DNA of 64,000 nt from an uncultured Gammaproteobacteria bacterium (GCA_964510885.1 CAZEDL010000004.1:3182-67181), one strand, 5' to 3'. Positions 7,357-62,519 are shown, counted from the stretch's first letter. The notes: generated by a model from the sequence alone, not told the origin. A program made the numbers and translations.

Positions 7357-7454
7357 ATTTCTCTTATTTAAGACCTTTTTTGAAAAACTACAACCATAGT
7401 AGCACACCTTGCTTTTTCTGTAAAAAATCGATAGGATACGATCATTTCCTAAAC

Positions 7455-9536: not shown

Positions 9537-9562
9537 AAAAAAATAATTATGGCGCTGGCACG

Positions 9563-10114: not shown

Positions 10115-10124
10115 ATAATTTTAG

Positions 10125-10646: not shown

Positions 10647-10668
10647 AGCCCTTTATTATTTGTCGTAA

Positions 10669-11100: not shown

Positions 11101-11233
11101 AAGTCTTAATCACTAAAAAACTAGTAGGCAACTAATTATTGAAAGAGAGAAATAGTTAAAATAATTATTTTTCTCTACCAACAAAAGTACCGCGAAGGGG
11201 AGAGTTGAAACTCTCCCCCACGATACGTATACA

Positions 11234-11668
11234 CTAGACAGGTTGAGTCGTAGCGCTTACCAAGCTGCTTACCACAAAGTTGGCAATAGCGTATGCTGAC
11301 AAAATAATCGCCAAACCAATGATACCGCTGAAAATCATTTTCTTAGCTTCACCAACTTTATCATCATTTCCACCCGCGGTCATCCAGGTAAAACCACCAA
11401 TCAAAATGATTACAACTGCGACGATACCAAGGAGACCCATGAGCACCTTGATAATGCGAGCAATAGTGATACGGATGTCAGTACTGGTGAGGCCGGTGTT
11501 GGCTCCGTATTGGATACCCAAGTCACTTTCGTTAATTGGCTTTACTGGGCCGCTGATGCCTGGCACCTGGTCGCCACCCTGGGCGAACGTCGCCACTGGC
11601 ACCGCCATACTGCCGATCATCATAGCTCCCATCGCGAAGCTGACTAAGAACTGTTTGAATCGTGTCAT
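11234..11668 (-). CDS. TrbC/VirB2-like pilin-family protein, paralog 6
   Basis: Start placed at MTRFKQ, preceded by RBS GGAGGTGAAGAT. Core ILIGGFTWMTAGGNDDKVGEAKKMIFSGIIGLAIILSAYAI. Confidence 0.6.
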   Translation of the reverse strand: MTRFKQFLVSFAMGAMMIGSMAVPVATFAQGGDQVPGISGPVKPINESDLGIQYGANTGLTSTDIRITIARIIKVLMGLLGIVAVVIILIGGFTWMTAGGNDDKVGEAKKMIFSGIIGLAIILSAYAIANFVVSSLVSATTQPV

Positions 11669-11765
11669 ATCTTCACCTCCTTCCCAGTAGAAACAAATTG
11701 TTTCATATGTGATGTTACAAAATAAACTGATCTGACCCCAGTATAACATACTGGCGCGAAACTTG

Positions 11766-12206
11766 TCACGAACCTTTGCTGAGAAAAACCAAATACTGAT
11801 CGAGCAAGAAATAACTAGCCAAAACTAGACCTAAGCCAATGGCTGCCCAGAGCATAGTCATAGCACCGCTGTGGACACGGTCGGGATTACCAAACGACAA
11901 TAACCACGAAGCCCCCCCTTTAATAAATACGATAAGGGCCACCGACCCAACAATTCCGAGCGCACCCTTTATGACGATGCCGAGGATAGTAGTCACTTCA
12001 ACCGGTCTCGCCCCATTTGCGCCTGGCGCCAATGGATTTTCTAAACATTGACGGTCTTTAGGGCAATCCTTATTTGCACCTGGTGTCTCGTCGCTAGTTT
12101 GAGCAAACACCGGGGCGGCCAACAAACCAACAGCAAGTGTTGCTAACAGCACCAAGAGCATCCATCGTCTAGAAAACTGCTGTGCCAGAGAAATCATATT
12201 AAACAA
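11766..12206 (-). CDS. TrbC/VirB2-like pilin-family protein, paralog 7
   Basis: The N-terminal region carries CPKDRQC. Core FIKGGASWLLSFGNPDRVHSGAMTMLWAAIGLGLVLASYFL. Confidence 0.55.
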   Translation of the reverse strand: MFNMISLAQQFSRRWMLLVLLATLAVGLLAAPVFAQTSDETPGANKDCPKDRQCLENPLAPGANGARPVEVTTILGIVIKGALGIVGSVALIVFIKGGASWLLSFGNPDRVHSGAMTMLWAAIGLGLVLASYFLLDQYLVFLSKGS

Positions 12207-12222
12207 CTGATAAAGATAAAAA

Positions 12223-13305
12223 TTATGACGCGCCGGTCAGCAATTGAAACACAAATCCAACTAGTACATAGCTCGCTAAAATAGCCACCACCCCAAGACT
12301 CGTCCATACCACCATTCTCTGGGCCTGCTCCACGCGCTCAGAATTTCCAGCCGCAGTCATCCAGAGCACACCGGCAACAATATATAATACCAGCGTAACA
12401 CCTCCGAGAATGGCCAGCGGCACCGAAATCAACCACCCAATCAAAGCCGCCCCTAGTTTCGAAGAATTACTATACGAATTAAACCGGCTCATCTGATTAA
12501 GCTCGGCCACTTGGTCCTGAATATCTTTCAGTGAACCGGGAGCATCTTCATCCTCACCCTCTGCCGCAGTTTTTTCCGGCGCCGGGAGCTTGCTAAAATC
12601 CATCAATGCGTCACAATCACTAATTATTTTGCCGCCTTCTTCACGGTCTTTCACGTCATACGCCTTGAGCCCTTCGCCGCAAATGCGCAGAGCTGGATCT
12701 TTTTGATTACCATTAAAGCCTTTAACAAATTCCGAATTATAGCGGCGGCGCCAATCTACATGGCGTTCGCAATCAGAGGGTACACCATTAGGTTTATCCG
12801 ATGGTTTACAGCAGCAAAACGGCGGATTATTAGCTACAGCCGGCTTCATCGTGTACTTACTTTTCATCTCTTCAAGCAAATCATCTTCTTGTTTTTGCAC
12901 GACCCCTTCATATTTTTCTTTGGCAATTTTTTTGGATTCGACCGTACAGGTTTTCCCATCATAATTCAGAACCATTTTACCCCCCAAATAAAATAACCGA
13001 TTTGGATATTCATCAAAACGATAAAAACCTGCCCACGAGAACAGCGGGATATCGAACTTTTTTTTATAAACGTCAATTTTATACGTTTTGTTAACTTTAA
13101 AAAAACCCGGATTAATGCCGACCATTACTGTACAAACACCAAGACACTCCAGCGACTCAGGATCATTGCAGGCATCACCCATGCCAACCAACTCAGGGGC
13201 ATACAATTCTTCAAACTGCGCCGCTGAAGCCGCGACAGGAAGCAGCTGAATAGTAGCCGCAATAAGCATCAAAGCAATAGCGTGCCAGTTAAAAAATCTT
13301 CGCAT
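12223..13305 (-). CDS. Cys-rich extracytoplasmic domain fused to C-terminal TrbC/VirB2-like pilin module, paralog 8
   Basis: N-terminal domain of about 270 aa with roughly 12 Cys (CNDPESLECLGVC, PPFCCCKPSDKPNGVPSDCERH). C-terminal LVLYIVAGVLWMTAAGNSERVEQAQRMVVWTSLGVVAILASYVL. Confidence 0.55.
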   Translation of the reverse strand: MRRFFNWHAIALMLIAATIQLLPVAASAAQFEELYAPELVGMGDACNDPESLECLGVCTVMVGINPGFFKVNKTYKIDVYKKKFDIPLFSWAGFYRFDEYPNRLFYLGGKMVLNYDGKTCTVESKKIAKEKYEGVVQKQEDDLLEEMKSKYTMKPAVANNPPFCCCKPSDKPNGVPSDCERHVDWRRRYNSEFVKGFNGNQKDPALRICGEGLKAYDVKDREEGGKIISDCDALMDFSKLPAPEKTAAEGEDEDAPGSLKDIQDQVAELNQMSRFNSYSNSSKLGAALIGWLISVPLAILGGVTLVLYIVAGVLWMTAAGNSERVEQAQRMVVWTSLGVVAILASYVLVGFVFQLLTGAS

Positions 13306-13324
13306 AACACTAAATAAAAGCCAT

Positions 13325-14035
13325 TTATTTAAGGATAAACTCAGGATCAACACCAACAGCCGAGGCCAAAAACTTAATCAAAATATAACCACCAAACGCA
13401 ATCAATAGCCCAATCACCACCGCTACCAAAATATCTTTGGCCTGGGAAATTTTTTCTTCATTGCCTTGGGATAAAATCAATATAAAACCACCATACACAA
13501 ACATCACGAGCGATACTCCACCAATAATAGAAAATAAATACTGCGTAATTTTAATAGCCAGCGTAATAAAAATATTAACACTGCGACACTGGTCAGTTAA
13601 CTCATTTTGTAAAGCACAATCCGGAATTAATCGGCTGCGGATAATTGTCGATGGCTGACTAGCGCCCCCCTCAGCACCCTCGGTAGTGCCAAGCAACTCT
13701 TTAAGACGAGTGGTTTTTTCCTGCTCCCAACCTTTCAGCGCTGCCTGACAAATATCATCGGTCTGTGCATAGTTACAATCAAAAAATCGCTTACTAGTGG
13801 CGGTGTTGGAATTTTTTTCCTTCGTACAGTCGCTCTGAGCGGCCACCGTCGAACACTGAGCAATAAACTGAGCCTGGTCTTTCACCGTTTCAGCCGTCAA
13901 TTTAGTCAAATTTTCAAAACAAAAACAGCTGCCAGCTGCTACTGCCGCTGGAGCTGGGAAAAACAAACCACCGCAGCCAGCAGCAAATAATAATCCGAAT
14001 ATAAAGAGGCGAATCTGTGAAGCCATAGTCTTCAT
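13325..14035 (-). CDS. Cys-rich N-terminal domain fused to C-terminal TrbC/VirB2-like pilin module, paralog 9
   Basis: Signal peptide, then about 10 Cys (SCFCFENL, QCSTVAAQSDCTKEK, DCNYAQTDDICQ, DCALQNELTDQC). C-terminal LVMFVYGGFILILSQGNEEKISQAKDILVAVVIGLLIAFGGYIL. Confidence 0.55.
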   Translation of the reverse strand: MKTMASQIRLFIFGLLFAAGCGGLFFPAPAAVAAGSCFCFENLTKLTAETVKDQAQFIAQCSTVAAQSDCTKEKNSNTATSKRFFDCNYAQTDDICQAALKGWEQEKTTRLKELLGTTEGAEGGASQPSTIIRSRLIPDCALQNELTDQCRSVNIFITLAIKITQYLFSIIGGVSLVMFVYGGFILILSQGNEEKISQAKDILVAVVIGLLIAFGGYILIKFLASAVGVDPEFILK

Positions 14036-27005: not shown

Positions 27006-27470
27006 ATGCAAGCGAGCGCTCTCGGATTATTCCCCCTCTTCGACGCCAGCAGCTACCGGGTAGGAATTGTAGTCTCTAGTTTCAACCATGATCTAACCAG
27101 CGGGCTACTCGATCAGGCACTGAGTGAACTAGAGCGCTACCAAGTAAAAAAAACCAATATTACTACGATCACCGTAGCTGGCTGTATTGAAATCCCCGTC
27201 GTGATCGAGGCCATGGCGCACAAAAAATCATTTGATTGTCTGATTGTACTCGGTGTGGTAATCCGCGGCGACACCCCTCATTTTGAATACGTTTGTAAAA
27301 TTGTCTCCGAAGGAGTGCGGCATACCATGCAAGCTCACACCCTTCCAGTCGGGTTTGGCATTCTGACCTTGAATAAAAAAAGTCAGGCTGCCGAACGCCT
27401 GATAGCCGGAGCTTCTGCAGCTGCAGCGGCGTTACAAGCCGCCAAGGCAATCAAACAGATTATTGAATAG
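27006..27470 (+). CDS. ribH: 6,7-dimethyl-8-ribityllumazine synthase
   Basis: YRVGIVVSSFNHDLTSGLL ... IEIPVVIEAM ... VIRGDTPHFEYVC. Confidence 0.85.
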   Translation: MQASALGLFPLFDASSYRVGIVVSSFNHDLTSGLLDQALSELERYQVKKTNITTITVAGCIEIPVVIEAMAHKKSFDCLIVLGVVIRGDTPHFEYVCKIVSEGVRHTMQAHTLPVGFGILTLNKKSQAAERLIAGASAAAAALQAAKAIKQIIE

Positions 27471-27562: not shown

Positions 27563-28477
27563 ATGTCTTTAACAAATTATTGGTCCGGTTTACTAGGCAT
27601 AGTAATTATAATTGTCAGCTACCTTCTGTTTCGTTACTGGCAAAAAATTAAACAAGCGCCAATCATGTTAGATAATCTTCCCGGGATTAAGCGCATCACT
27701 ACCAGTTTTTTAAATAACTACAGCACGGACTTTACCATACTGGCCCGACAAGGAAGAATTGACCCGATCATCGGACGAGTCGAAGAAGTACGTAAGCTCA
27801 CCCAAGTACTGGCTCGACGCACAAAAAATAACGCTCTCTTAATCGGCGCTCCTGGTGTCGGTAAAACTGCCATTGTGGAAGGTCTAGCCCAGAGAATTAT
27901 AAAAAAAGACGTTCCAGAAACCTTACTTAATAAACGGGTTCTAGCCCTTGATGTGGCGACTATTATGTCTGGCACCAAATACCGTGGAGAATTTGAACAA
28001 CGCGCTAAAAAAATTATCCAGGAAATCAGCGCTTCTCAACGCTCAATCATACTCTTTATCGACGAAATACATTCCGTAGTTCAATCGCAAGGCAGTGAAG
28101 GCTCGATCAATCTTTCCGACATCTTAAAACCAGCTTTAGCGCGGGGAGATCTTCAGATGATTGGGGCGACAACTACTGAAGAGTATACTAAATACATAAA
28201 AACTGATCCCAGTTTTGATCGTCGTTTCCAACCCATTGAAGTTGTGGAAGCAAGTGAAAATGAAACCTTAGACATTCTTCAGGGGGTGAAAGAAAAATAT
28301 CAGGAATACCATAAAGTTACCTTTACCGATGCCGCTTTGAAGACTGCTGTTCAGCTAGGAAAGCAGCTTATTACTGACCGCAAATTACCAGACAAGGCTA
28401 TTGACGCCCTTGATGAAGCGGCCGCCATGGTGAAAGTAAGCAATATTTCTACCGCTGTCAGCACTGTCCTCTATTAA
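27563..28477 (+). CDS. Clp/Hsp100-family AAA+ ATPase, D1 domain only, with N-terminal TM helix (truncated)
   Basis: Walker A GAPGVGKTA and IDEIH as in the first AAA module of ClpB/ClpC. The ORF stops after D1 and has no Clp N-domain. Confidence 0.6.
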   Translation: MSLTNYWSGLLGIVIIIVSYLLFRYWQKIKQAPIMLDNLPGIKRITTSFLNNYSTDFTILARQGRIDPIIGRVEEVRKLTQVLARRTKNNALLIGAPGVGKTAIVEGLAQRIIKKDVPETLLNKRVLALDVATIMSGTKYRGEFEQRAKKIIQEISASQRSIILFIDEIHSVVQSQGSEGSINLSDILKPALARGDLQMIGATTTEEYTKYIKTDPSFDRRFQPIEVVEASENETLDILQGVKEKYQEYHKVTFTDAALKTAVQLGKQLITDRKLPDKAIDALDEAAAMVKVSNISTAVSTVLY

Positions 28478-49045: not shown

Positions 49046-49603
49046 TTATTTTAACCGACCGTGTCTAACCATATACGCCAAGCGCACCACCGCATACGCG
49101 ATAAAATTATTCTCTATTTCTCCTTCAAGAGCCATTTTTTCTGCCTGCTTTATCGGTACAAACCGCCTCTCCAAAATTTCTTCCCCGACATCAAGTGGCA
49201 ACGGGCTCAGCGACAAATCCGTCGCCAAAAAAAGATACACCGGCCAAATCATTTTATCCGAATCCACCGCCTGTTTCCATTGCACCCATTTTTTGGCAGC
49301 ATAGCCCCCTTCTTCGCGGAGCTCACGTTGCGCCGCCTTGCGTGGCAGCTCCTTTTTTTCTACCTGACCAGCGGGTAAAAACCACTCTATCTTTCCATTC
49401 CCAGCGCGACGCTCTCGAATCAATAACAACTCTTGCTTAGTGTTCAGCGCCAAAATGAGCACGCTCGCCGGCCGACTGCAATATTCAAACGTGTCCTTTT
49501 TTCCATTCGGCAACACCACCGGCCGCTGATAAATTGTAAAAATTTTTCCCTGGTACTTTTTCTGTAGTGACCCAAATTTAATTTTTTTAACCATAAAAAT
49601 CAA
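49046..49603 (-). CDS. NUDIX hydrolase
   Basis: Nudix box AGQVEKKELPRKAAQRELREEGG. Confidence 0.7.
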   Translation of the reverse strand: MIFMVKKIKFGSLQKKYQGKIFTIYQRPVVLPNGKKDTFEYCSRPASVLILALNTKQELLLIRERRAGNGKIEWFLPAGQVEKKELPRKAAQRELREEGGYAAKKWVQWKQAVDSDKMIWPVYLFLATDLSLSPLPLDVGEEILERRFVPIKQAEKMALEGEIENNFIAYAVVRLAYMVRHGRLK

Positions 49604-51750: not shown

Positions 51751-52695
51751 TTACCAAGTGAGTTCATGACCATATGCCCGCTTAAACCGGGCTTTAAATT
51801 CATCGATTGTAAAGGTGTGTTTCTGCGTGCCATACGTTTCAATCGCATAGCTGGCCGCCACGCTGCCAACTTCGGCGCACTCTTTCCAGCCGAGTCCCTT
51901 TTGCTGCGCTGCCCAAAAACCAGCGCGATACGCATCCCCAGCTCCGGTCGGATCATCGCACGATTGCGGCGCGCACGCCGCCACCTGGATTGGTTCCTGC
52001 CCGCGCACAGTCACAATCGATCCCTGCTCGCCAAGCGTAGTAATCAAAACTTCCGTCTGCTCGAGCATTTCTCGCCCACTCCAACCCGTGCGCTCTTCGA
52101 GCAGTTTCATTTCATAATCATTCCCAATCACCGCATATGATTGCGACACCATTTGCTTCAATTCCACTTCGTTAAAGGCAATAATTTGCTGACCCGGATC
52201 AAACACTGTTTTTATTCCGAGCTCCTTGGCTTCTTTTAAATGCTTAGTCATCACATCGCGGTGGGTAGGGCTCACAAACGCGAGTGTCGGCCGGGGTGTA
52301 ACGGTGGAAAGCGCAACATCAGCCGCACTCTGTAGCGGCCCCGGAAAAAAGGCCGTGATCTGATTGTCATCGCGATCGGTAGTGATGTATCCAGCAGCCG
52401 AAAACACATTAGGGTCTGTGACTATATGTTCGGTATGAATGCCCATCTGCTCAAAATGATCGCGATATTCAGCCGCATCTTTGCCAAGTGCCGACACAAT
52501 GATCGGCTCAGCCCCTAGGAGTTTCAGGGTATAGGCAATATTGCCAGCGGTGCCACCCCGGCTCTGTTCCAACCGATCCACCATAAAACTCACATTCAGG
52601 ATATGGATTTGTTCGGGCAGAATATGATTTTTGAAACTGTCCGGAAAGCCCATGATGTAATCGTAGGCGAGCGAGCCAGAGACCAGAATAGACAT
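51751..52695 (-). CDS. PfkB-family carbohydrate/nucleoside kinase (adenosine-kinase-like)
   Basis: GGTAGNIAYTLKLLG ... DPTGAGDAYRAGF. Adjacent to ahcY. Confidence 0.8.
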   Translation of the reverse strand: MSILVSGSLAYDYIMGFPDSFKNHILPEQIHILNVSFMVDRLEQSRGGTAGNIAYTLKLLGAEPIIVSALGKDAAEYRDHFEQMGIHTEHIVTDPNVFSAAGYITTDRDDNQITAFFPGPLQSAADVALSTVTPRPTLAFVSPTHRDVMTKHLKEAKELGIKTVFDPGQQIIAFNEVELKQMVSQSYAVIGNDYEMKLLEERTGWSGREMLEQTEVLITTLGEQGSIVTVRGQEPIQVAACAPQSCDDPTGAGDAYRAGFWAAQQKGLGWKECAEVGSVAASYAIETYGTQKHTFTIDEFKARFKRAYGHELTW

Positions 52696-52812
52696 ATCAT
52701 GAATGATTAAAAAATTGTCGATTTCGCCCTCAGCATATCAAAAAGAGTAAACATTGTCTAACAAAAATCTTCCAGTTTAAGTCTCCGAAAATGGCTAAAC
52801 GGAATTGGTTCG

Positions 52813-52897
52813 GTGTCATTCCCGCGCAGGCGGGAATCCAGAAAAGCAAGGCCGGGGTTAAAAGTGACCGTGGATTCCCGCCTGCGCGGGAATGACA
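52813..52897. repeat. GTCATTCCCGCG-family palindromic MITE-like element
   Basis: GTGTCATTCCCGCGCAGGCGGGAATCCA ... TGGATTCCCGCCTGCGCGGGAATGACA. Confidence 0.8.
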
Positions 52898-52991
52898 ATT
52901 AAAAAATCTCTCCAATTAAGGAGAGACGACAATCAGTTGGGGAACCCGCGGGCGACGATGGTCGCCCGGGGTGGGGGTCAGGTGGGTGGGC

Positions 52992-53321
52992 TTAAGCGAA
53001 GACGGGAGAGAGGAACCTGGCCTCGATCTCAGCAATCTGCGCCTCGAGGAGGAGGCGGACACGCGGATCGTAGGTGTGGCGCTTCAGGTTGCGGCCAGCG
53101 GTCAGCAGACCAATGTCGGCCTTGCGACGCTGCTTCGAGGAGCGAGCACACAAGGCATCCTTCTTAGCCCGCTCGAACCGAAGAGTGAGGATCTCGAGGT
53201 GGTTGGCACGAGCGACCACCTCACTGATCCGTCGGCGACGGCGCTGGTCCCGACGACCTCCGACCCGAAAGTCAGACGAGGTGCAACGACTGTTTCCTGA
53301 ACTTCCATTATGACGTGGCAA
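52992..53321 (-). CDS. small highly basic hypothetical protein in a very GC-rich patch (TTG start after AAGGAGG)
   Basis: RBS AAGGAGG, 5 nt, then TTG. Product MPRHNGSS...RRDQRRRRRISEVVARANHLEILTLRFERAKKDALC... The local GC is far above its surroundings. Confidence 0.35.
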   Translation of the reverse strand: MPRHNGSSGNSRCTSSDFRVGGRRDQRRRRRISEVVARANHLEILTLRFERAKKDALCARSSKQRRKADIGLLTAGRNLKRHTYDPRVRLLLEAQIAEIEARFLSPVFA

Positions 53322-53580
53322 AAGCGCCTCCTTATAAAAACCGGCTATAGCCGGCGACACAAATTGCATAAAAAAACTCTATATCATTTGTATCACCGAC
53401 TATTTTCACCTGATTATAAAGCAAAAAACCTCTTTGATAAGGGATTTTTTAGCATTTATAACAATAGAGTGTGACACATTTAAAGAATTTTGTCAACCCA
53501 TAAAAACGCACAGCCAAGCCTAAATAATTCTTGACAACCAAGTACAGTTAGATACCATATGAGAAATAAAAATTTACATT

Positions 53581-53949
53581 ATGCTTCCTTATACCTTCAC
53601 CGCTCCAGTGGTCGCCGGCCACGGCAATGGCGACAAACTAAACGCCCCCACCGCCAATTTTGATCTTTCGTTTGCCACCTCGCTCCAGCGCGGGCTCTAC
53701 ACCTGCACCGCCGCCATGAATGATCAAACTTTCAACGGCCTACTATACTATGGCCACAACTCACTTACCGGCACAGACTGTTTCGAAGTACACTTACTGA
53801 ATTTTTCAGGAAACTTATACGAAAAAAAAATAACGGTCACCGTTGACCGTTATATTCGGCAAGAAAAAAAATTTACTGACGAGGCCAGTCTCAAAGCTCA
53901 AATCGCTACCGATCTTAGCACTGCTGCAGATTATTTTTCCAAAAAATAA
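53581..53949 (+). CDS. riboflavin kinase (monofunctional flavokinase domain)
   Basis: APVVAGHGNGDKLNAPTANFDL ... EVHLLNFSGNLYEKKITV matches the RibF C-terminal kinase domain. Confidence 0.7.
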   Translation: MLPYTFTAPVVAGHGNGDKLNAPTANFDLSFATSLQRGLYTCTAAMNDQTFNGLLYYGHNSLTGTDCFEVHLLNFSGNLYEKKITVTVDRYIRQEKKFTDEASLKAQIATDLSTAADYFSKK

Positions 53950-54606
53950 TTAAAACCGGCCGCCGACTCCACCCACCACGATCGCTCCGCCCGTCACTCC
54001 GTTATGGTCACTTTCGGCTCCAGGCACGTTAGCCCCTTTCCCCACCACACCTTTTACATCGGCACCAAGCACCAATTTATCGCCAACCAAGTGGGCTTCG
54101 GCACGCACACCGAGAAAAGCTTCTCCCCCCGGAGCTGTCATGCCTGGCCGTAAATCAAGCACTCCTCCAGCTTTTGGCCCCACATAAATCGGAGCTTTCC
54201 CAGTTTTAAATAAAATCGAGGCTTCTGCCCCCACTTCACCGCCGCCAACACCATTTTTATCAAATTTAACTCCACCAAGCACTGCTCCCCCAACGAGCGC
54301 TTCGCCCGGCTTGCCTGGTCGAACATGGGTTTCGGCCCCGACCGCTGCCACGAGCGCACCACTTCCGTGGGTGCTCCCCTCCAAATTAAGATCGACGGTT
54401 ACAGTTGGCCGATGTTTCTCTTTGTGATGACCGGCCTCAGACTTCTTGGCAACTGTCTCCGTACGAGCAGCCGGATGCGTTTCGGCTTGGGCCTTGCTTA
54501 CCTCACCTCCGCTAAGAGCAGCGGCGAGGGCGGCAGCCGCAGCAAATTCTGGTCCTCGTCTCATATAGTTAAAAATAAAGGATAAAAGCATCCTACTATT
54601 CCACAA
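53950..54606 (-). CDS. secreted Gly-rich repeat protein (hypothetical)
   Basis: Signal peptide, then GG/GxG-rich repeats. GC-rich. Confidence 0.4.
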   Translation of the reverse strand: MWNSRMLLSFIFNYMRRGPEFAAAAALAAALSGGEVSKAQAETHPAARTETVAKKSEAGHHKEKHRPTVTVDLNLEGSTHGSGALVAAVGAETHVRPGKPGEALVGGAVLGGVKFDKNGVGGGEVGAEASILFKTGKAPIYVGPKAGGVLDLRPGMTAPGGEAFLGVRAEAHLVGDKLVLGADVKGVVGKGANVPGAESDHNGVTGGAIVVGGVGGRF

Positions 54607-54662
54607 AACACCGCATTTGTCAATCTATTTTTTAAAAAATACCTGTAATTAGGGCCTTTATT

Positions 54663-55439
54663 CTAAAAAATAAACCACCAAAGTGCCAGCGCCGCCACTA
54701 TCCGATAGATTCCAAACACTTGAAACGAATGACTGCGCACATACCTCAAAAGCCACTTCACCACCCCGAGAGCTACTACAAATGACACTATAAATCCCAC
54801 TGCCAAGACCAATCGCCCCTCAGGAACCAACAGCTCTTTATAATTTTTAATCACATCAAGGCCGCTTGCCGCCGCCATCGTCGGAATTGCGAGTAAAAAA
54901 GAAAATTCCACCGCTGACTCCCGACTAAATCCAAGTGCCATCGACCCCACAATCGTGGCCCCCGAACGCGACACCCCCGGAATCATTGCTACTGCCTGGC
55001 TAAGGCCAATAATCACTGCCTGCCGATAACTCATCTCGCCAAGCGACTTGGGGGCAACCTCCTGCTTCCGTACCAGCCGCTCAAAAACGATTAATACCAC
55101 GCCCCCGATAGCCAAAGCGCCAATCACCACCGCCACATTTCCGAGTAAGTACTGTTTAATTATTTTATAAAACAAGAGACCCAGTGCCCCCGTTGGTAAA
55201 AATGCGACCGCCACTTTTTTTAACAACGGCCAATCAACCAAGAGGCGTCGCGCATACAACACCACGATCGCCAAAATCGCACCCAGCTGGATCACCACCT
55301 CAAAGCTCTTCATGAATTCCGAATTCGGCAGCTTGAGTAGCGCTCCGGCAGCAATCAAATGTCCAGTCGAGGAGATCGGCAAAAATTCCGTCACTCCTTC
55401 TATTATCCCCAAAACTACTGCCTGAAAAATAGATGGCAT
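54663..55439 (-). CDS. uppP: undecaprenyl-diphosphatase
   Basis: AVVLGIIEGVTEFLPISSTGHL and 8 TM helices. Confidence 0.85.
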   Translation of the reverse strand: MPSIFQAVVLGIIEGVTEFLPISSTGHLIAAGALLKLPNSEFMKSFEVVIQLGAILAIVVLYARRLLVDWPLLKKVAVAFLPTGALGLLFYKIIKQYLLGNVAVVIGALAIGGVVLIVFERLVRKQEVAPKSLGEMSYRQAVIIGLSQAVAMIPGVSRSGATIVGSMALGFSRESAVEFSFLLAIPTMAAASGLDVIKNYKELLVPEGRLVLAVGFIVSFVVALGVVKWLLRYVRSHSFQVFGIYRIVAALALWWFIF

Positions 55440-55485
55440 ATTTAAAAATTTTATAAACTTCTTAGTCCCGATGGACTTAGTCAAA

Positions 55486-55631
55486 ACTTACGCGCTTGGG
55501 ACAATTGTCATCCTGAACGTAGTGAAGGATCCCTTAACGCTAACTTATTACTACTGTTAACTATAAGGGATTCCCCCAAAGGGACGGCTCCGGGGTTCGT
55601 TTCACTCAGAATAACAGTTGAACGGGTAAGT
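55486..55631. repeat. MITE-like palindromic element (TGTCATCCTGAACGTAGTGAAGG family) with outer AACTTACGCG/CGGGTAAGT TIRs
   Basis: TGTCATCCTGAACGTAGTGAAGGATCCCTTAACGCTAAC...TATAAGGGATTCCC...GGGTTCGTTTCACTCAGAATAACAG. Confidence 0.7.
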
Positions 55632-55645
55632 CGTGTTAGTAAAAA

Positions 55646-56257
55646 CTACTTATTCAAAATCTTCTCCTCTTTCCGTGCGATCAAAATCGCCGCCACCGCC
55701 ACTATCAATCCCAAAAACAAGACTTGCAGCGTCCCCGTCAAATGCCGCGCCCGCTCCCACGCCTGCCCAAAAAAATAACCAAACAAAATATAGGTCGGCG
55801 CAAACAGCAGCGCACTCGTTATATTATACAAAAAAAATTCCCGGCTGCGCATCTTGGTAAGCCCGGCCACAAACGGAATCACCGGCCGGAGCGGCCCGAT
55901 AAACCGGGCCAGCACCACACTCTTGTTACCATTCCGTTCAAAAAATCGCACCCCTTTATCGAGATATTCTAGCTTAAACCAACGGCTACCCGGCGTAAAC
56001 CACACTGTCCCCTGGCGGCCCAAATAAAAGCTAATCGCATCCCCAATCACGCTCCCGATAATAACCGGGATCATCAAATCCACCACTCCCACCCGGCCCT
56101 GAGCTGCAAAAATTCCGACCACAATAATAATGGTAGTACCCGGTACAAACAAGCCAATAAATGCCAACGACTCCAAGATTGAAACAAAAAACAACAGGCC
56201 GTAAATCCACGGGCCGGCCTGTTGAAAAGTAGTCAGTAAAAAATGAATCGGACGCAT
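55646..56257 (-). CDS. DedA/SNARE-associated family membrane protein
   Basis: FFERNGNKSVVLARFIGPLRPVIPFVAGLTKMR. Confidence 0.8.
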   Translation of the reverse strand: MRPIHFLLTTFQQAGPWIYGLLFFVSILESLAFIGLFVPGTTIIIVVGIFAAQGRVGVVDLMIPVIIGSVIGDAISFYLGRQGTVWFTPGSRWFKLEYLDKGVRFFERNGNKSVVLARFIGPLRPVIPFVAGLTKMRSREFFLYNITSALLFAPTYILFGYFFGQAWERARHLTGTLQVLFLGLIVAVAAILIARKEEKILNK

Positions 56258-56283
56258 AGGCTACGGTGTCGGCACAATTACCG

Positions 56284-56838
56284 CTACCGCTCACTTCTAT
56301 TAAAACGTTCCTGCAACCAGCGAAACAACCCCTGGTATTGTTCATCATGTGGTACTAGGCTCTCATCTCGGTCACCAACTAATCGAGCCAATTCTTCATG
56401 ATGCACAAACCGCACCGCCGCCACTTCGTCGGCCTGAAGCACACATGCTTCAATCGGTGTATCTATTTCTGCCGCATACACGTGGGCCAATTCCCGGGCC
56501 GGATGCAGACGATCAGGAAACGGAAAAATCTCTTTGGTAGTAAATAAAAAGGTAAACGCGTCTTCTGGCACATCAAGGCCAATCTCTTCGAGAGTCTCCT
56601 GCCGGGCGGTAGCCAGAGGCGTCGCCCCAGCCACCACATGCCCCGCACTCGAGCTATTCCACTTCAGCGGATTACCATCTTTATGCACCGAACGCTGCTG
56701 AATTAGCACCTCACCGTGCCGGTTAAACAACCATACATCCACAGTCAGATGCCAATCACCATCGCGATGCACCTCATGACGCGGTTTTACCTCTCCCGTT
56801 GGGTTCCCCGCTTCATCACACACTTCTAGATATTCCAT
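56284..56838 (-). CDS. NUDIX hydrolase (candidate dihydroneopterin-triphosphate pyrophosphatase by context)
   Basis: Nudix box GHVVAGATPLATARQETLEEIGL. Divergently adjacent to the folate cluster. Confidence 0.6.
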   Translation of the reverse strand: MEYLEVCDEAGNPTGEVKPRHEVHRDGDWHLTVDVWLFNRHGEVLIQQRSVHKDGNPLKWNSSSAGHVVAGATPLATARQETLEEIGLDVPEDAFTFLFTTKEIFPFPDRLHPARELAHVYAAEIDTPIEACVLQADEVAAVRFVHHEELARLVGDRDESLVPHDEQYQGLFRWLQERFNRSER

Positions 56839-56987
56839 ACCATTATACTCGACGTTCCGGAGCGTAAATAAAAATAACGCTAGACATTTTTTAACGTTAT
56901 CACACCCGCACCTAGAATACTAGTCAAGCGCTTGTCAGAGATACCTAAATAAGCTATATTTCCGCTTGTAATTCTTAGCCTTTTTCT

Positions 56988-57674
56988 ATGCAAAATAGCG
57001 ATCTCGTCACCAGACTACAATCCCTCATTGCCGACAAACACCTGCTCCAGCACCCCTTCTATCAGCACTGGGAAAAAGGCACTCTCCCCAAAGAAGTACT
57101 GGCCAAATATGCCGAACAATATTACCACTTAGAACGCAACTTCCCCCGCTTCCTCAGCCAGATCCACACCAACTGCGATGACCCAGCCCTCCGCCAGACC
57201 ATTACCGACAATCTATACGACGAAGAGCATGGCCAGAATAACCACCGCGAGCTCTGGCTGCGCTTTGCCGAGGCCGTGGGTGCATCCCGGGCAGAAGTAG
57301 AAAATTCTGTTCCGCTGCCAGAAACGGAGGCCACCCTCCACACTTTCACCACGCTTAGCCAAACGTCATCTTTGGCCGGCATCTCTGGCCTCGCTGCCTA
57401 CGAACACCAGATTCCAGCTGTCGCCACCAAAAAAATCGAGGGCTTAGAAAAAAATTACGGTATTACCGATGATCGCGGGCTAGCCTTCTTTCGAGTACAT
57501 GGCATAGTTGATGTCGATCATGCCAATGCCTGGTGGGACGCGATCGCTAAAGACGCCACCACTCCGGAACAAGCCGCGGAAGCAGAGCAGAGCGTGATCA
57601 CTGGACGCGATGCCCTGTGGAATTTTTTAACCGGTGTCTGCCGCGCCTATTTCCCACAAGCTTTGGCTTGTTAA
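56988..57674 (+). CDS. CADD/PqqC/TenA-like haem-oxygenase-like di-iron protein (candidate self-sacrificing pABA synthase)
   Basis: All-alpha 228 aa with E..H pairs (EEHGQNNHRELW, AAYEHQIP, HGIVDVDHANAWWD). Lies directly upstream of folP, as CADD-type pABA synthases do. Confidence 0.55.
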   Translation: MQNSDLVTRLQSLIADKHLLQHPFYQHWEKGTLPKEVLAKYAEQYYHLERNFPRFLSQIHTNCDDPALRQTITDNLYDEEHGQNNHRELWLRFAEAVGASRAEVENSVPLPETEATLHTFTTLSQTSSLAGISGLAAYEHQIPAVATKKIEGLEKNYGITDDRGLAFFRVHGIVDVDHANAWWDAIAKDATTPEQAAEAEQSVITGRDALWNFLTGVCRAYFPQALAC

Positions 57675-57695
57675 GAGCTTGAAGAGCTATACAGC

Positions 57696-57750
57696 TGTCA
57701 TTCTCGCGCATCCGCCTCCGCCATTTGGCGGATGGCGGAGGGAATCCAGC
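57696..57750. repeat. GTCATTC-family palindromic hairpin element
   Basis: TGTCATTCTCGCGCATCCGCCTCCGCCA-TT-TGGCGGATGGCGGAGGGAATCC. Confidence 0.65.
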
Positions 57751-57779
57751 AATCACCATAGACGTCGAAACTAAAAAAC

Positions 57780-58586
57780 ATGGACTTCTCTCCAAAAAAA
57801 ACCCAAATCATGGGGGTGCTCAACGTCACCCCCGATTCTTTTTTTGATGGCGGACAGTGGCACGGTGATCTCGATCGAACCCTCGCCCATGCTGAAGAAT
57901 TGATTGCCGCTGGCGCCGATTACCTAGATATCGGCGGCGAAAGCTCACGCCCCGGCGCCACTCCAGTCCCGGAAGACGAAGAATTACAGCGCGTAATTCC
58001 GCTTATTGAGAAGCTCAGGGCCATATCGCACGTTCCTATTTCTATCGACACCTATAAACCAAGGGTGGCCAAAGCCGCATTGGCGGCAGGAGCTAGCATC
58101 ATCAACGACATCACTGGCCTCACCGATCCAGCCATGCGCAAAGTAGCTGCTGAATATAACGCCCCGGTGATTATCATGCACATGCTCGGTCGCCCGCAAA
58201 CCATGCAACAAAACCCTACCTATACCGATGTCGTGGCCGACATCTCGCACTTCTTTACTACCCAAATTAAACTGGCTACAGTCGCCGGCATTACCAACAT
58301 TATCCTCGATCCCGGGCTCGGCTTTGGCAAAACCCTTGAGCACAACCTAACGATTATAAAACGCCTGCACGAATTCACCGCTCTTGGCTATCCTGTTCTC
58401 ATTGGCCCCTCACGTAAATCATTCATTGGCACAGTAACTGGCAACCTCCCACCGGCAGAGCGTCTTGAAGGCACCATCGCCGCTGCGGTTATGAGCGCAT
58501 TAAACGGCGCTAATATTATTAGGGTCCATGATGTAAAAGAATGCAAACGAGCACTGCAGGTTGCGGATGCGGTAAAAAATTATTAA
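57780..58586 (+). CDS. folP: dihydropteroate synthase
   Basis: IMGVLNVTPDSFFDGG ... DIGGESSRPGA ... DPGLGFGK. Confidence 0.9.
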   Translation: MDFSPKKTQIMGVLNVTPDSFFDGGQWHGDLDRTLAHAEELIAAGADYLDIGGESSRPGATPVPEDEELQRVIPLIEKLRAISHVPISIDTYKPRVAKAALAAGASIINDITGLTDPAMRKVAAEYNAPVIIMHMLGRPQTMQQNPTYTDVVADISHFFTTQIKLATVAGITNIILDPGLGFGKTLEHNLTIIKRLHEFTALGYPVLIGPSRKSFIGTVTGNLPPAERLEGTIAAAVMSALNGANIIRVHDVKECKRALQVADAVKNY

Positions 58587-58590
58587 TACC

Positions 58591-58686
58591 TGCCATCCTG
58601 AACGAAGGCTCACGCGGCAGTGAAGGACCCCCTGGTATTAACCTTACTCTTGCTACGAGGGGGGTCCCTCGTATCTCGGGATGACA
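58591..58686. repeat. MITE-like palindromic element (TGCCATCCTGAACGAAGG...CGGGATGACA)
   Basis: Imperfect TIRs, central GGACCCCCTGG...GGGGGGTCC. It occupies the folP-folB spacer and creates a spurious N-terminal extension on the folB ORF. Confidence 0.7.
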
Positions 58687-58694
58687 AAAAACCT

Positions 58695-59048
58695 ATGGAC
58701 AAAATAATTCTCTCTGACTGTCACTTTCTCGCCTGCATTGGCGTCACCACCGCAGAACGGGGAGCCCCCCAACCAATCAGCATCGATCTCGAACTGAATT
58801 TCGACACCCGCCTCGCTGGCCAGTCTGATTCATTATCTGATACTATCAACTATAGTGCTATTCATAGCACACTGCAGGCATATATCACCTCTCATTCATT
58901 TCAACTGATCGAGGCGCTGGCCGAACATCTAGCGACAGAGGTGATTGCCAGCTTCCCTATCAAACAACTAACACTGCGCCTCAAAAAACCCGGCGCACTG
59001 AATAAAAAAGGCGGCGCCTACGCGGCCGTCGAAATCACTCGTCCTTAA
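58695..59048 (+). CDS. folB: dihydroneopterin aldolase
   Basis: MDKIILSDCHFLACIGVTTAERGAPQPISIDLEL. T-fold of about 118 aa. Confidence 0.75.
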   Translation: MDKIILSDCHFLACIGVTTAERGAPQPISIDLELNFDTRLAGQSDSLSDTINYSAIHSTLQAYITSHSFQLIEALAEHLATEVIASFPIKQLTLRLKKPGALNKKGGAYAAVEITRP

Positions 59049-59062
59049 TAGTTACCTTACGT

Positions 59063-60157
59063 ATGAAAAAAACCCTCCTCGCACTCAGCGCACTTTTGAT
59101 TTTAACCGGGCAAGGCTGCACTCTGTCCGGCATCGATTCTGCCAGCAGCACACCCGTTGGATCTGTCGCACCAGCCAGTGAACCAGATCAACATGTCGAC
59201 CTATCGCGGCTCGATGGTAGCAACGGCCTGTTCCGTTTTTTTGCCACACTGCCAGCAGGATGGCATGCCGAATATTCAAGTGACGCAAAAGCTCTGTTGA
59301 TTTACGATCATATAAATCCGCAGGCAAAGTACACTCAAGATGAAGCGATTATTTTTATTAACACCTTCACAGCCAAATCATTTCTTACTCTAACCACTGT
59401 CGACATTACCAAACGCTCCCCCACCACCATTGCTGGGCGTAGCGCCATGATCTACGAAATTACCAAAAAATCTACGGCGCCTGCATTCGCCAATCAGCCA
59501 GCCTGGCGAAATGAAAAACATGAAGTTACCGATATTCGCTTTACCAAAAACAATCCCAGTATTTTTTACGTCATTGCCCGCAATCCGAAATTATCCGTCG
59601 ACACCTTTGGCACTATTCTAAACTCATTGCAATTTCATAATGACCCAGCTACCTTTGTGCCCCCACTGCCAGATGCCAAAGCCCGCCTCACCAAAAAACC
59701 GTTCGGCATCCTGATCAATAAACAAACCTCTCCTGTCGTGCCCGAACGATTCTCCGGCTACCACACCGCTGTTGATTTTGAAATCCTTGATAAACACGAA
59801 TTTGTGACTCGTATACCAGTCGCTGCAGTGTGCGGCGGGCCAGTAAAAAAGAAAGAAGCGAAAGCCGGATACGGTGGCGTATTGATACAAGAATGCATGA
59901 TCAATGATCAACCTATCACAGTAATCTACGGCCATTTATCCTGGTCAAAAACCAAAGTGAAAGCCGGCGACTACCTCTCGCCCGGCGAAGAATTCACAAC
60001 CCTTGGCGAATCACCCAAAGAAACCGACAGCGAACGCAAGCATCTACACCTCGGCTTCCATAAAGGCACGGCGATTGAATACCGGGGATATGTAGCGACG
60101 AAGTCTGCTCTGTCTGCTTGGCTTGATCCGTGCGCGTATAACGTCTGCGGACAATAA
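59063..60157 (+). CDS. M23-family metallopeptidase lipoprotein
   Basis: Lipobox LTGQGC. C-terminal HTAVDF ... YGHLS ... HLHLGFH as in LytM-type M23 peptidases. Confidence 0.75.
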   Translation: MKKTLLALSALLILTGQGCTLSGIDSASSTPVGSVAPASEPDQHVDLSRLDGSNGLFRFFATLPAGWHAEYSSDAKALLIYDHINPQAKYTQDEAIIFINTFTAKSFLTLTTVDITKRSPTTIAGRSAMIYEITKKSTAPAFANQPAWRNEKHEVTDIRFTKNNPSIFYVIARNPKLSVDTFGTILNSLQFHNDPATFVPPLPDAKARLTKKPFGILINKQTSPVVPERFSGYHTAVDFEILDKHEFVTRIPVAAVCGGPVKKKEAKAGYGGVLIQECMINDQPITVIYGHLSWSKTKVKAGDYLSPGEEFTTLGESPKETDSERKHLHLGFHKGTAIEYRGYVATKSALSAWLDPCAYNVCGQ

Positions 60158-60191
60158 ACAGCGTCATGCCAAAACTGCTCAAACACCGCCT

Positions 60192-60689
60192 ATGACCGCA
60201 CCGTCAACTCACACCGCCTACCTCGGCCTTGGCTCCAATCTCGGAGATCGGGCTAGCTATATTAATCAAGCAAAACAGGCGTTAACCGGCCTCGGGCAGC
60301 TCGTAGCTGAATCATCGCTCTACGAAACTGCTCCGCAAGGCTGGGTTAACCAACCTGCTTTTCTCAACTGCGCAGTAGCTCTCGCCACTGACCTATCTCC
60401 GCGCGACCTGCTCGCTGCTGCTCTCACTATCGAAAACCAGCTGGGCCGCGTGCGCACCATGCTGCTCGGGCCACGCATCATCGATATTGATATTTTATTA
60501 TATGACGACCTGGTCGTGTCTGAAAAAAACCTGACCATCCCCCACCCTAGCCTGCATAAGCGGGCCTTTGCGCTGATCCCGCTATTAGAAATTGACCCTG
60601 ACATATCTCACCCGGTGCTGCAGCGGAAAATGTCCGAACTACTCAGGTCTCTGCCCGACCAATCTGTTACCAAACTGACCTCGCACTAA
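60192..60689 (+). CDS. folK: 2-amino-4-hydroxy-6-hydroxymethyldihydropteridine pyrophosphokinase
   Basis: AYLGLGSNLGDR ... LYETAPQGW ... GPRIIDIDILLYDD. Confidence 0.85.
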   Translation: MTAPSTHTAYLGLGSNLGDRASYINQAKQALTGLGQLVAESSLYETAPQGWVNQPAFLNCAVALATDLSPRDLLAAALTIENQLGRVRTMLLGPRIIDIDILLYDDLVVSEKNLTIPHPSLHKRAFALIPLLEIDPDISHPVLQRKMSELLRSLPDQSVTKLTSH

Positions 60690-60690
60690 T

Positions 60691-61446
60691 ATGACCAAAC
60701 CCTCCACCTCTTGGGGCCCCGTCGCCGACTGGTATGACAGTCTGCTCTCCGCGCCCGGCACCTACCAGCAAGATGTAATCCTGCCGAATTTGCTACGCCT
60801 GCTCGACCCAAAAAAATCAGACACCCTGCTCGACATCGGCTGTGGACAAGGCTTCTTTGCCAAACACTTCAGCGCTCGCGGAGCCGCTGTCACCGGGCTT
60901 GATATCTCACCCGAACTAATTGCCATTGCCGAAAAAGCAGCTCCGGATGCCGGCTTTTTTGTTGGTTCGGCCGAAAACCTGTCGACCATTAAAGACAAAT
61001 CCATTACTAGCGCCTATAGTATCCTGGCCATTCAGAATATCAAAAACACCGGCGCCGTATTCGCCGAATGCGCTCGCGTTCTGAAAGCCAATGGCCGCTT
61101 AGCACTGGTGCTCAATCATCCCGCGTTCCGGATTCCCAAACAGAGTGCCTGGGGCTGGGATGACACGACTAAAACCCAATATCGACGGGTGGACAGCTAC
61201 TTATCCGAAATCAGTGTACCAATTGACATGCATCCCGGTAAAAAAGATTCAGTCGCTACCATCTCATTCCATCGCCCCCTGCAATATTATTTCAAATTAC
61301 TTGCCAATAATGGCTTTGTAATTACTCGCCTTGAAGAATGGATATCGCACAAAAAGAACGGCCCAGGGCCCCGCGCAGCGGCTGAAAATAAAGCCCGCCA
61401 CGAATTCCCGCTATTTTTATACCTTGAAGCTAAAAAATCTACATAA
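60691..61446 (+). CDS. class I SAM-dependent methyltransferase
   Basis: Motif I LLDIGCGQGFFAKHFSARGAAVTGLDIS. Confidence 0.75.
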   Translation: MTKPSTSWGPVADWYDSLLSAPGTYQQDVILPNLLRLLDPKKSDTLLDIGCGQGFFAKHFSARGAAVTGLDISPELIAIAEKAAPDAGFFVGSAENLSTIKDKSITSAYSILAIQNIKNTGAVFAECARVLKANGRLALVLNHPAFRIPKQSAWGWDDTTKTQYRRVDSYLSEISVPIDMHPGKKDSVATISFHRPLQYYFKLLANNGFVITRLEEWISHKKNGPGPRAAAENKARHEFPLFLYLEAKKST

Positions 61447-61455
61447 TAATGCAGC

Positions 61456-62220
61456 ATGCCAGACGCTTCACTCCAAAACATATTCGATTCGCTCTCCCAC
61501 CTCGAACACTCACAAATCTTTTGCGGCGCTACCAACCACACCGCTACCTGTAGCGACGAGCGGATTGTCATTGGTTCAATCCATATCCCTGGAGCCGGGA
61601 TATTAACTCGCGACCCGGTGGCCACGGCGCGCCTGCTAAAAAATATCGGCATCACCGAATTAACCTCTCACGAAAACTGCGGCGCCGCGGCGGCTGCCCA
61701 CACCGCTATCACCTTTGAATTAAAAACCAGCCCAGACCTCCAACCACCAGCATGGTTTGTGGCGAGCAGTAGCGAAGAAACGGCGCGACAATTTGTAGCC
61801 AAAACGGTCGAATCCTTAAAAACCATAGGTGTGCCAGCAGTAGAGCACCATCTGACCTTCGACAACGGCGGCATGGTTGGCGACTGCACTGTTCACCATG
61901 CTACCGTCATTTACTACGACATCGCTGGCCGCGGCTTTAACCAATACGCGGCCCCTGGCAAACTGCCACTCGGATTTGTAATCACCGCCATACCAAACGA
62001 AGAAACAACCAACCTCGGGAATATCGAGGCCGTCGTTGGCATTGCCTTCGGCAAAAACGGGAAGCCCAAATTCTACCAGCACACTCCGCTCAAAATCGCC
62101 CTCCTCACCACCGAACAAAACACACCAGACATCCTCCCCAAAATTAACCACGCCCTAGCTGCCAAATTCCCCAAACAAATCAAACAAATTACCGTAGAAA
62201 CAGTTCAAATCCACTTCTAA
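61456..62220 (+). CDS. hypothetical protein in folate cluster (possible divergent FolE/T-fold-like)
   Basis: 254 aa. VEHHLTFDNGGMVGDCTVHHATVIYYD resembles the GTP cyclohydrolase I CEHHLVPF...HVAYIP region, but the first Cys is absent. Confidence 0.4.
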   Translation: MPDASLQNIFDSLSHLEHSQIFCGATNHTATCSDERIVIGSIHIPGAGILTRDPVATARLLKNIGITELTSHENCGAAAAAHTAITFELKTSPDLQPPAWFVASSSEETARQFVAKTVESLKTIGVPAVEHHLTFDNGGMVGDCTVHHATVIYYDIAGRGFNQYAAPGKLPLGFVITAIPNEETTNLGNIEAVVGIAFGKNGKPKFYQHTPLKIALLTTEQNTPDILPKINHALAAKFPKQIKQITVETVQIHF

Positions 62221-62284
62221 TTTCCAATCTCTAACACATAATCGCTTCACTCAACATCACACCCCGAACCATTGCGCAGCGATT

Positions 62285-62432
62285 GCCACTCGACACGGTA
62301 AGGAGAAGCGGTCCAGAGGACGGGCCCTGCTGTTTGAGGAGCTCCGCCGGAGGCGGAGTGACGAGTTCAGGGCCCGAGCTTCGACGCGCCGATGTGAGTG
62401 GCAGAAGCGGAGCACCGGTTCGGTGGTTTTTT
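62285..62432 (+). ncRNA. candidate structured small RNA ending in an intrinsic terminator (identity unknown)
   Basis: Nested helices GCCACTC/GAGTGGC, GGGCCCTG/CAGGGCCC and CTCCGCC-GGA-GGCGGAG, then CACCG-GTT-CGGTG-G-TTTTTT. GC-rich, in a convergent intergenic region. Confidence 0.35.
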
Positions 62433-62491
62433 GGTCACTTTTTTGCCACCAAAAAAGTGACACACTCAACCGCTCACAAAAAACACAAACA

Positions 62492-62519
62492 AAAAACGTA
62501 CACCATAGTGTACGTTTTT
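62492..62519. terminator. bidirectional intrinsic terminator
   Basis: AAAAACGTACAC-CATA-GTGTACGTTTTT. Confidence 0.65.

Follow-up and report, generated by a model that had tools for sequence, protein, structure and literature searches.

The locus described here raises the question of how much of folate biosynthesis is encoded by one short run of genes, and whether the least familiar genes of that run belong to the pathway at all. It occupies positions 56,284 to 62,220 of a 64,000-nucleotide stretch of DNA (the window) assigned to an uncultured Gammaproteobacteria bacterium (GCA_964510885.1, CAZEDL010000004.1:3182-67181). An earlier reading, made from the sequence alone, listed eight open reading frames (ORFs), namely a Nudix hydrolase on the minus strand followed on the plus strand by a CADD-like protein, folP, folB, an M23 peptidase, folK, an S-adenosylmethionine (SAM)-dependent methyltransferase and an unknown protein of 254 residues. 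This gene order was confirmed together with the coordinates and strands (Table 1), and the domain assignments agree with the Pfam and NCBIfam results. The sequence-only reading further proposed that the CADD-like protein makes 4-aminobenzoate (pABA), that the Nudix hydrolase could fill the FolQ role, and that the last ORF may be a cryptic FolE. The analysis covered family memberships, residue conservation and gene contexts, from which enzymatic activities, operon transcription and the taxon were deduced. With good confidence, it points to a folate operon for the dihydropteroate branch with a CADD-type pABA synthase, an incidental 254-residue neighbour and a probable Patescibacteria host.

The 228-residue protein encoded upstream of folP is, by its sequence, clearly a predicted pABA synthase of the CADD family. 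It scores 239.9 bits against TIGR04305 ("CADD family putative folate metabolism protein"), for which the cutoff is 200, and it matches in the PDB the structures 9pj4 (E 2e-45) and 8va9 (E 7e-40), both deposited as 4-aminobenzoate synthase, as well as CT610 of Chlamydia trachomatis (1rcw, E 4e-40). In CT610, the pABA ring comes from cleavage of Tyr27, and the amine from Lys152 (PMC9522330; PMC11965152). Alignment mapping places Y25, Y41, Y45, W90, Y138 and K149 of the window protein at Y27, Y43, Y47, W92, Y141 and K152 of CT610, and the dimetal ligands E79, H86, E139, H171, D175 and H178 at E81, H88, E142, H174, D178 and H181. These six ligands account for the E..H/H..D..H pattern that had been noticed from the sequence alone, and the conserved Tyr and Lys of CADD, proposed then as a check, are both present as Y25 and K149. 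As its score exceeds the curated cutoff and the catalytic Tyr is kept together with the Lys and the six metal ligands, the claim of a CADD-like protein was borne out.

Compared with CADD (CT610) and with NePabS (NE1434) of Nitrosomonas europaea (TIGR04305, COG5424), the window protein is of similar length and mostly alignable, and every residue shown to be essential in either of them is kept. Common to all three are the six metal ligands, the sacrificial Tyr (Y25), the amine-donor Lys (K149), the essential Tyr41 and the clustering with folP, folB and folK, while the host, a probable Patescibacterium, is different. The two aromatic positions involved in metal selection are Y138/F167 in the window protein, Tyr/Tyr in CADD (Y141/Y170) and Phe/Phe in NePabS (the second being F177). 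In NePabS, these positions set the preference for Fe/Fe or Mn/Fe, and its F148Y variant was reported to be equally active with both (PMC11965152). The combination in the window protein is that of this variant, and the mixed Tyr/Phe pair would be a natural test case for the selection between Fe/Fe and Mn/Fe.

The gene is placed directly before folP, as first described, and a link between CADD and folP/folK was also found in L049, a locus from another assembly, and in the metagenome contigs L024, L025, L027, L028 and L030, in which the arrangement CADD-folP-(folB)-folK recurs. CADD-fol clusters of this kind are already known, with a curated family model and solved structures in existence; the present one follows the textbook CADD-type pABA route and is of value mainly as a data point in an unusual host. 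In two of the contigs, other genes flank CADD-folP-folK: pterin-4a-carbinolamine dehydratase and PurN in L027 (12549-12845 and 12979-13587), and RibD and purine genes in L030 (2482-3597). These flanks hint at wider pterin and one-carbon gene neighbourhoods.

Since folP, folB and folK score above their equivalog cutoffs, the cluster is predicted to encode the steps from dihydroneopterin to dihydropteroate as well as the supply of pABA. In the proposed scheme, the promoter region between the Nudix and CADD genes would drive CADD, folP, folB and folK, with the M23, methyltransferase and 254-residue ORFs carried along. The CADD enzyme would cleave its own Tyr25 in a single turnover to give pABA, with Lys149 as amine donor and the six ligands holding the dimetal site; FolB and FolK would convert dihydroneopterin to hydroxymethyldihydropterin diphosphate, which FolP would condense with pABA. 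The best candidate for the preceding removal of pyrophosphate from dihydroneopterin triphosphate is the divergent Nudix hydrolase, and the 254-residue protein would stand outside the pathway.

A single transcription unit from CADD through the 254-residue ORF was inferred from the short gaps, the promoter-like site upstream and the hairpins past the last gene. That site lies within the 149-bp divergent intergenic region between the Nudix and CADD genes. The gaps are 1 nt between folK and the methyltransferase gene and 9 nt between the latter and the 254-residue ORF, and terminator and fold scans gave strong hairpins solely after 62220 (62431-62461 and 62492-62519), the second of them terminator-like on both strands. 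As the Pfam FolB domain begins at residue 29 of its ORF, and the FolB and FolK domains both lie about 25-30 residues into the ORFs as first listed, ATG 58695 and ATG 60192 are the likelier starts of folB and folK, respectively. The folB orthologue in L049 has 118 residues.

Two genes of the run are proposed to be lineage-specific passengers. The M23 gene stands between folB and folK, a position kept in the syntenic relative L049 and in none of the other CADD-fol clusters, and the lipid-attachment match of its product is weak (LPAM_1, 15.8 bits against a Pfam cutoff of 20). The methyltransferase, whose top PDB match is an uncharacterised SAM methyltransferase (3bkw), has its gene directly behind folK in L049 as well, the two overlapping by 4 nt, and is missing from the other CADD-fol clusters.

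The relatives of the locus also bear on the host. L049 (GCA_964585245.1, 3745-20161) keeps the succession O-antigen ligase, AhcY, PfkB, flavokinase, BacA, DedA, Nudix, CADD, folP, folB, M23, folK and methyltransferase, its CADD gene being interrupted by an assembly gap. L005 (1366-10744), from a metagenome-assembled genome (MAG) of Candidatus Magasanikiibacteriota, has a gene order in common with positions 51751-62220 of the window, and its PfkB is 57% identical. Because of the synteny and of the PfkB identity with this MAG, the window genome probably belongs in or near Patescibacteria, related to Candidatus Magasanikiibacteriota. Genomes of the Candidate Phyla Radiation (CPR) are said in a preprint to lack dihydropteroate synthase (DHPS) (bioRxiv 10.64898/2026.07.13.738296). 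If the placement is right, the window and L049 would be counter-examples to that statement, the window genome being a probable Patescibacteria genome that encodes DHPS, FolB and FolK together with a pABA synthase.

As for the remaining steps of the pathway, no folE, folE2, folC, folA, pabABC or ribA was found in the window by Pfam scans and a six-frame motif scan, in agreement with the earlier observation that folE, folC and folA are absent from it. The Pfam scans took in the cluster, almost every further ORF from 24 to 64 kb and the unassigned ORFs of the first 24 kb; some others, for example polynucleotide phosphorylase, the ribonucleotide reductase subunits and small membrane proteins, were judged by translation to be clearly unrelated. 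The window also has a lone lumazine synthase (RibH, 27006-27470, plus strand) and a monofunctional flavokinase (53581-53949, plus strand), with no other riboflavin genes in it; these are worth noting because RibA can replace FolE in Chlamydia, and no RibA was seen in the window.

The divergent Nudix gene is a part of the locus on which the evidence is evenly divided. The closest relatives of its product in NCBIfam and PDB are type 1 isopentenyl diphosphate (IPP) isomerases (IDI), with scores below cutoff (69.4 against 127 and 45 against 105.8 bits). The three His metal ligands are kept, and Ala65 aligns with the catalytic Cys67 of wild-type IDI (3hyq). The Nudix box reads G66-HVVAG-A72-TPLATAR-Q80-E81-T-L-E84-E85-I-G-L against the consensus GX5EX7REUXEEXGU, so that A72 and Q80 replace E and R, and the core glutamates E81, E84 and E85 are kept. 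Since the catalytic Cys is replaced, the scores are below cutoff and the hydrolytic glutamates are present, the protein is best described as a hydrolase of an IDI-like subgroup. A true IPP isomerase was considered and rejected on account of the Ala at the catalytic position and of the scores.

FolQ was first identified by its gene clustering with folate genes, and in a comparative-genomics survey of 2007 the enzyme of this step was unresolved in most bacteria (PMC1971073). Like FolQ (Lactococcus lactis YlgG, plant NUDT1) and E. coli NudB, the window protein has a Nudix fold and a gene clustered with folate genes. Unlike them, it belongs to another subgroup, the IDI-like one, and has Ala in place of the catalytic Cys; at 17.1 bits against the NudB model NF006961 (cutoff 103), it does not qualify as an orthologue of NudB. 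Orthologues with 61-64% identity are again divergently paired with CADD in L049 and in an ERZ27296333 contig. In addition, another Nudix subfamily lies divergently upstream of CADD in L024-L027 and yet another just after folK in L030, and an adjacent Nudix gene was found in each CADD-fol lineage whose flanks were long enough for a judgement. Because its partnership with CADD is preserved and other CADD-fol clusters have unrelated Nudix genes at their flanks, a role as dihydroneopterin-triphosphate pyrophosphatase is plausible, with about an even chance; the support for it is drawn from gene context. The earlier proposal of a FolQ therefore stands in so far as the pairing with CADD recurs and two other CADD-folP-folK lineages have unrelated Nudix genes beside them, and falls short in that the protein is not a NudB orthologue. 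The presence of Nudix genes of three unrelated subgroups beside CADD-fol clusters is context evidence on which enzyme performs the FolQ step.

A housekeeping function of the Nudix hydrolase, unrelated to folate, is just as probable. It would then act, for example, on isoprenoid diphosphates or other nucleotide-diphosphate substrates, and dihydroneopterin triphosphate would be handled elsewhere or bypassed through RibA and TrpF. The closest characterised relatives are indeed IPP isomerases, with whose three His ligands it agrees, the NudB model gives it a mere 17 bits, and a homologue in L005 is located away from fol genes. Chlamydiae, moreover, have CADD with no FolQ at all, using the RibA and TrpF bypass (PMC4161248). 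Against this, the Nudix-CADD pairing is kept in orthologous loci, although within the lineage this may reflect just recent common ancestry, and two unrelated Nudix subfamilies have been independently recruited beside CADD-folP-folK in other lineages.

The last ORF of the run required a separate treatment, since the 254-residue protein has no match in Pfam, NCBIfam or the PDB sequences. Three relatives were retrieved by a word-indexed search of 5.8 billion proteins and 84 by a full HMMER scan of 1.84 billion representatives; the latter were aligned with the window protein to give a family of 85 sequences. Residues C32, D34, G46, H72, C75, H147 and G202 are invariant, C32, D34, H72 and C75 being found in 85/85, with C-I-D-E-[RG] and S-H-x-G-C-G-A-A as consensus motifs. 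From this alignment, AlphaFold2 produced an alpha/beta model with a mean predicted local distance difference test (pLDDT) score of 94.2 and a predicted TM-score (pTM) of 0.91. A Foldseek search of the model against PDB gave nothing at E<=0.001.

Cys32, Asp34, His72 and Cys75 resemble the zinc site of beta-carbonic anhydrases (beta-CAs). The top PDB match of the family profile is the Trichomonas vaginalis beta-CA 6y04 (E 0.067), with both motifs aligned, and hhalign against 29 beta-CAs gave a probability of 88% over 56 columns (the zinc core) and of 85% over 138 columns with looser settings. Beta-CAs (PF00484, e.g. 6y04) have in common with the family the motifs C-x-D-x-[R] ... A-G ... H-x-x-C-G in identical order and on matching secondary-structure elements, first a strand end and then a strand end with a helix N-terminus. 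The family differs from them in the additional invariant His147, in the motifs YYD, LPxGF and IAxGxxG, and in a C-terminal alpha/beta extension of ~80 residues. Two of the 85 members graze Pfam Pro_CA (E>=0.2), and none reaches the Pfam threshold. The dyad Arg, R36 in the window protein, is R in 45/85 and G in 39/85. Since this Arg is often Gly and the family has its own His147 and C-terminal motifs, its members are described here as probable metal binders and not as beta-CAs: the 254-residue protein probably represents an uncharacterised family with a metal bound at a beta-CA-like site, and on present sequence evidence it is better kept out of the beta-CA family, membership being not established.

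The genomic context of this family was examined in 19 loci from species-representative genomes, obtained by a genome scan seeded with a 10-sequence alignment. In nine of the 19, the homologue lies within the F1 ATP synthase operon (Table 1); subunit identities were confirmed with Pfam in L006 and L018. It follows atpA-atpG-atpD(-atpC) in eight loci, with atpC detected directly upstream in five of the eight; in these five, the homologue starts within ~30 nt of the atpC end, overlapping it in four. Another count, over the nine loci, gives six such starts, of which five overlap atpC. In L018, it stands between atpA and atpG. The contexts away from ATP synthase (L004, L005, L007, L011, L012, L014, L015, L017, L020 and L022) showed no conserved functional theme. 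Neighbour-joining scattered the ATP-linked members across most of the family's tree; L004, P0002 and P0003, all three without ATP linkage, form a clade of their own with the window protein. These contexts suggest a functional link between the family with the beta-CA-like site and ATP synthase, and no report of a carbonic-anhydrase-like protein in ATP synthase operons was found in the literature. Tentatively, and with a probability well short of even, this undescribed metalloprotein family may work with the F-type ATP synthase as a partner encoded in its operon, both in Patescibacteria and in some further lineages; the window clade would have moved off the atp operon. The family is the more original by-product of the analysis, is absent from Pfam and NCBIfam, and offers a testable lead that has nothing to do with folate.

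The same contexts bear on whether the 254-residue protein takes part in the folate pathway. Fol genes were found near its homologues in 0/21 loci (the 19 genome loci and two Logan contigs), and a homologue near CADD in 0/26 CADD loci. L049 has the complete fol cluster, but a GT4 glycosyltransferase gene replaces the 254-residue ORF, followed by the cyclophilin gene as in the window; L005 has PfkB, flavokinase and DedA and then the homologue, with no Nudix or fol genes between. The fol cluster and the 254-residue gene are therefore separable at one chromosomal position, the former being alone in L049 and the latter in L005. The protein probably lies outside the folate pathway, and its fol neighbourhood would be incidental.

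Two alternatives that would keep it in the pathway were weighed. According to the first, which is improbable, the protein and the methyltransferase work together on a pterin or folate intermediate as a functional pair, in a lineage-specific extension of the pathway other than FolE. The tight spacing of folK, the methyltransferase gene and the 254-residue ORF would fit such a pair, as would the methyltransferase gene right after folK in L049, but L049 keeps the methyltransferase with the glycosyltransferase gene in place of its supposed partner, and a similar methyltransferase was found beside a homologue in no locus except the identical Logan contig L001.

The second alternative, that of the sequence-only reading, is a divergent T-fold GTP cyclohydrolase I supplying the missing first pterin step. 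GTP cyclohydrolase I also uses a Zn(Cys,His,Cys) site, and the sole likeness of the family to FolE is its invariant Cys, His and Cys able to bind zinc, to which an invariant second His can be added. The probable co-transcription with folK across gaps of 9 and 1 nt and the lack of folE and folE2 in the window speak for the same proposal. The strings on which it was founded, VEHHLTF (residues 129-135) and HHATVIYYD (147-155), do occur in the protein, but the CEHH-like motif is unconserved in the family: there is no Cys, most members have Gly or a gap at E130, H131 occurs as an insertion in 2/85 sequences, and H132 is found in 62/85. No profile of FolE, FolE2 or another T-fold protein in Pfam or NCBIfam matches the ORF or any of the 85 members, and no T-fold protein is among the 50 Foldseek matches listed for the confident alpha/beta model, all of them non-significant. 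The motif that is conserved aligns to beta-CA, fol genes accompany none of the family loci, L049 has the cluster with no such gene, and 0/5 of the other CADD-folP-folK loci (L024, L025, L027, L028 and L030) have a homologue. A cryptic FolE is thus very improbable; sequence, predicted structure and gene context refute it to the extent that such evidence can. A comparably slight chance is given to the recruitment of the window clade as a zinc cyclohydrolase other than T-fold for the pterin branch.

Least probable of all is that the CADD-like ORF is TenA/thiaminase II or PqqC instead of a pABA synthase: Pfam TENA_THI-4 also matches it (E 8e-26) and the PqqC model does so weakly (67.6 bits, cutoff 240), but it is above the CADD-specific cutoff and far under that of PqqC, the CADD and pABA synthase structures in the PDB search (E 1e-40 to 1e-45) are far ahead of PqqC (E 1e-8 to 1e-11) and of thiaminase II (~1e-4), and the sacrificial Tyr and the Lys are present in a gene directly upstream of folP, so that scores and residues rule out both identities.

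The preferred reading is therefore a dihydropteroate-branch operon with a CADD-type pABA synthase and a 254-residue neighbour unrelated to folate, and several points weigh against it. The enzymatic activities of all the cluster proteins are deduced from their sequences. The Nudix box departs from the consensus at two positions, occupied by Ala and Gln, and Nudix genes are frequent, with a second one in the window at 49046-49603. The link to beta-CA is partial: it relies on the 56-column profile match, while among the Foldseek matches listed a beta-CA (CafC) appears no higher than rank 50 (TM 0.25/0.33) and the dyad Arg is so often replaced by Gly. Moreover, the 254-residue ORF begins 9 nt after the methyltransferase stop and precedes the only strong hairpins, for which reason it is probably co-transcribed with the fol genes, and a Cys-His-Cys zinc site is shared with GTP cyclohydrolase I, so that the chemistry by itself leaves room for a purine-ring hydrolase.

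Table 1. Features of the folate locus in the window, and homologues of its 254-residue protein in ATP synthase operons (positions within each locus).
Feature	Position	Strand	Evidence or remark
Nudix hydrolase, IDI-like subgroup, candidate FolQ-like	56284..56838	minus	Pfam NUDIX E 1e-17
Sigma-70-like promoter match TTGTCA-17-TATATT	56932..56960	plus	Consensus scan, 10/12; pattern match alone
Predicted CADD-family (haem-oxygenase-like dimetal) self-sacrificing 4-aminobenzoate synthase	56988..57674	plus	TIGR04305, PDB matches, key residues
folP, dihydropteroate synthase	57780..58586	plus	TIGR01496 336 bits (cutoff 162.6); Pfam Pterin_bind E 5.5e-88
folB, dihydroneopterin aldolase	58695..59048 (ORF open from GTG 58620)	plus	TIGR00525 88 bits (cutoff 72)
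M23-family peptidase lipoprotein	59063..60157	plus	Pfam Peptidase_M23 34 bits (cutoff 28.7)
folK, hydroxymethyldihydropterin pyrophosphokinase (HPPK)	60192..60689 (ORF open from TTG 60123)	plus	TIGR01498 132 bits (cutoff 54)
Class I SAM-dependent methyltransferase	60691..61446	plus	Pfam Methyltransf_11 E 5e-21
254-residue alpha/beta protein, uncharacterised family; last gene of plus-strand run	61456..62220	plus	No Pfam or NCBIfam match
Structured non-coding stretch	62264..62519	plus	~160-nt element 62264-62423, hairpins 62431-62461 and 62492-62519
Homologue in atp operon	L006:9887-10663		After atpA-atpG-atpD(-atpC)
Homologue in atp operon	L008:9896-10678		After atpA-atpG-atpD(-atpC)
Homologue in atp operon	L009:7748-8584		After atpA-atpG-atpD(-atpC)
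Homologue in atp operon	L010:9812-10696		After atpA-atpG-atpD(-atpC)
Homologue in atp operon	L013:9914-10696		After atpA-atpG-atpD(-atpC)
Homologue in atp operon	L016:9818-10615		After atpA-atpG-atpD(-atpC)
Homologue in atp operon	L018:4527-5285		Between atpA and atpG
Homologue in atp operon	L019:8993-9754		After atpA-atpG-atpD(-atpC)
Homologue in atp operon	L021:7559-8323		After atpA-atpG-atpD(-atpC)

Elsewhere in the window, about nine small membrane proteins, paralogues of one another, are encoded in tandem on the minus strand (6985-7407 and 9090-14035), each with an N-terminal signal-like segment and a C-terminal hydrophobic helix pair around a conserved ...W(M/L)xxxG(N/D)...AK... motif. 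A 304-residue ORF on the plus strand (27563-28477) has an N-terminal hydrophobic segment, an AAA domain and AAA_lid_9 as in Clp/Hsp100 ATPases, and from these domains it looks like a truncated or unusual ATPase of that type.

The 314-nt gap after the 254-residue ORF is highly structured, with fold z-scores of -9.2 (plus strand) and -5.7 (minus strand). The element tabulated there matched no Rfam family, and no second copy of it was found in the window or in the fetched loci; judging from its predicted folding, it may represent a small RNA not yet classified, or else an elaborate 3' end.

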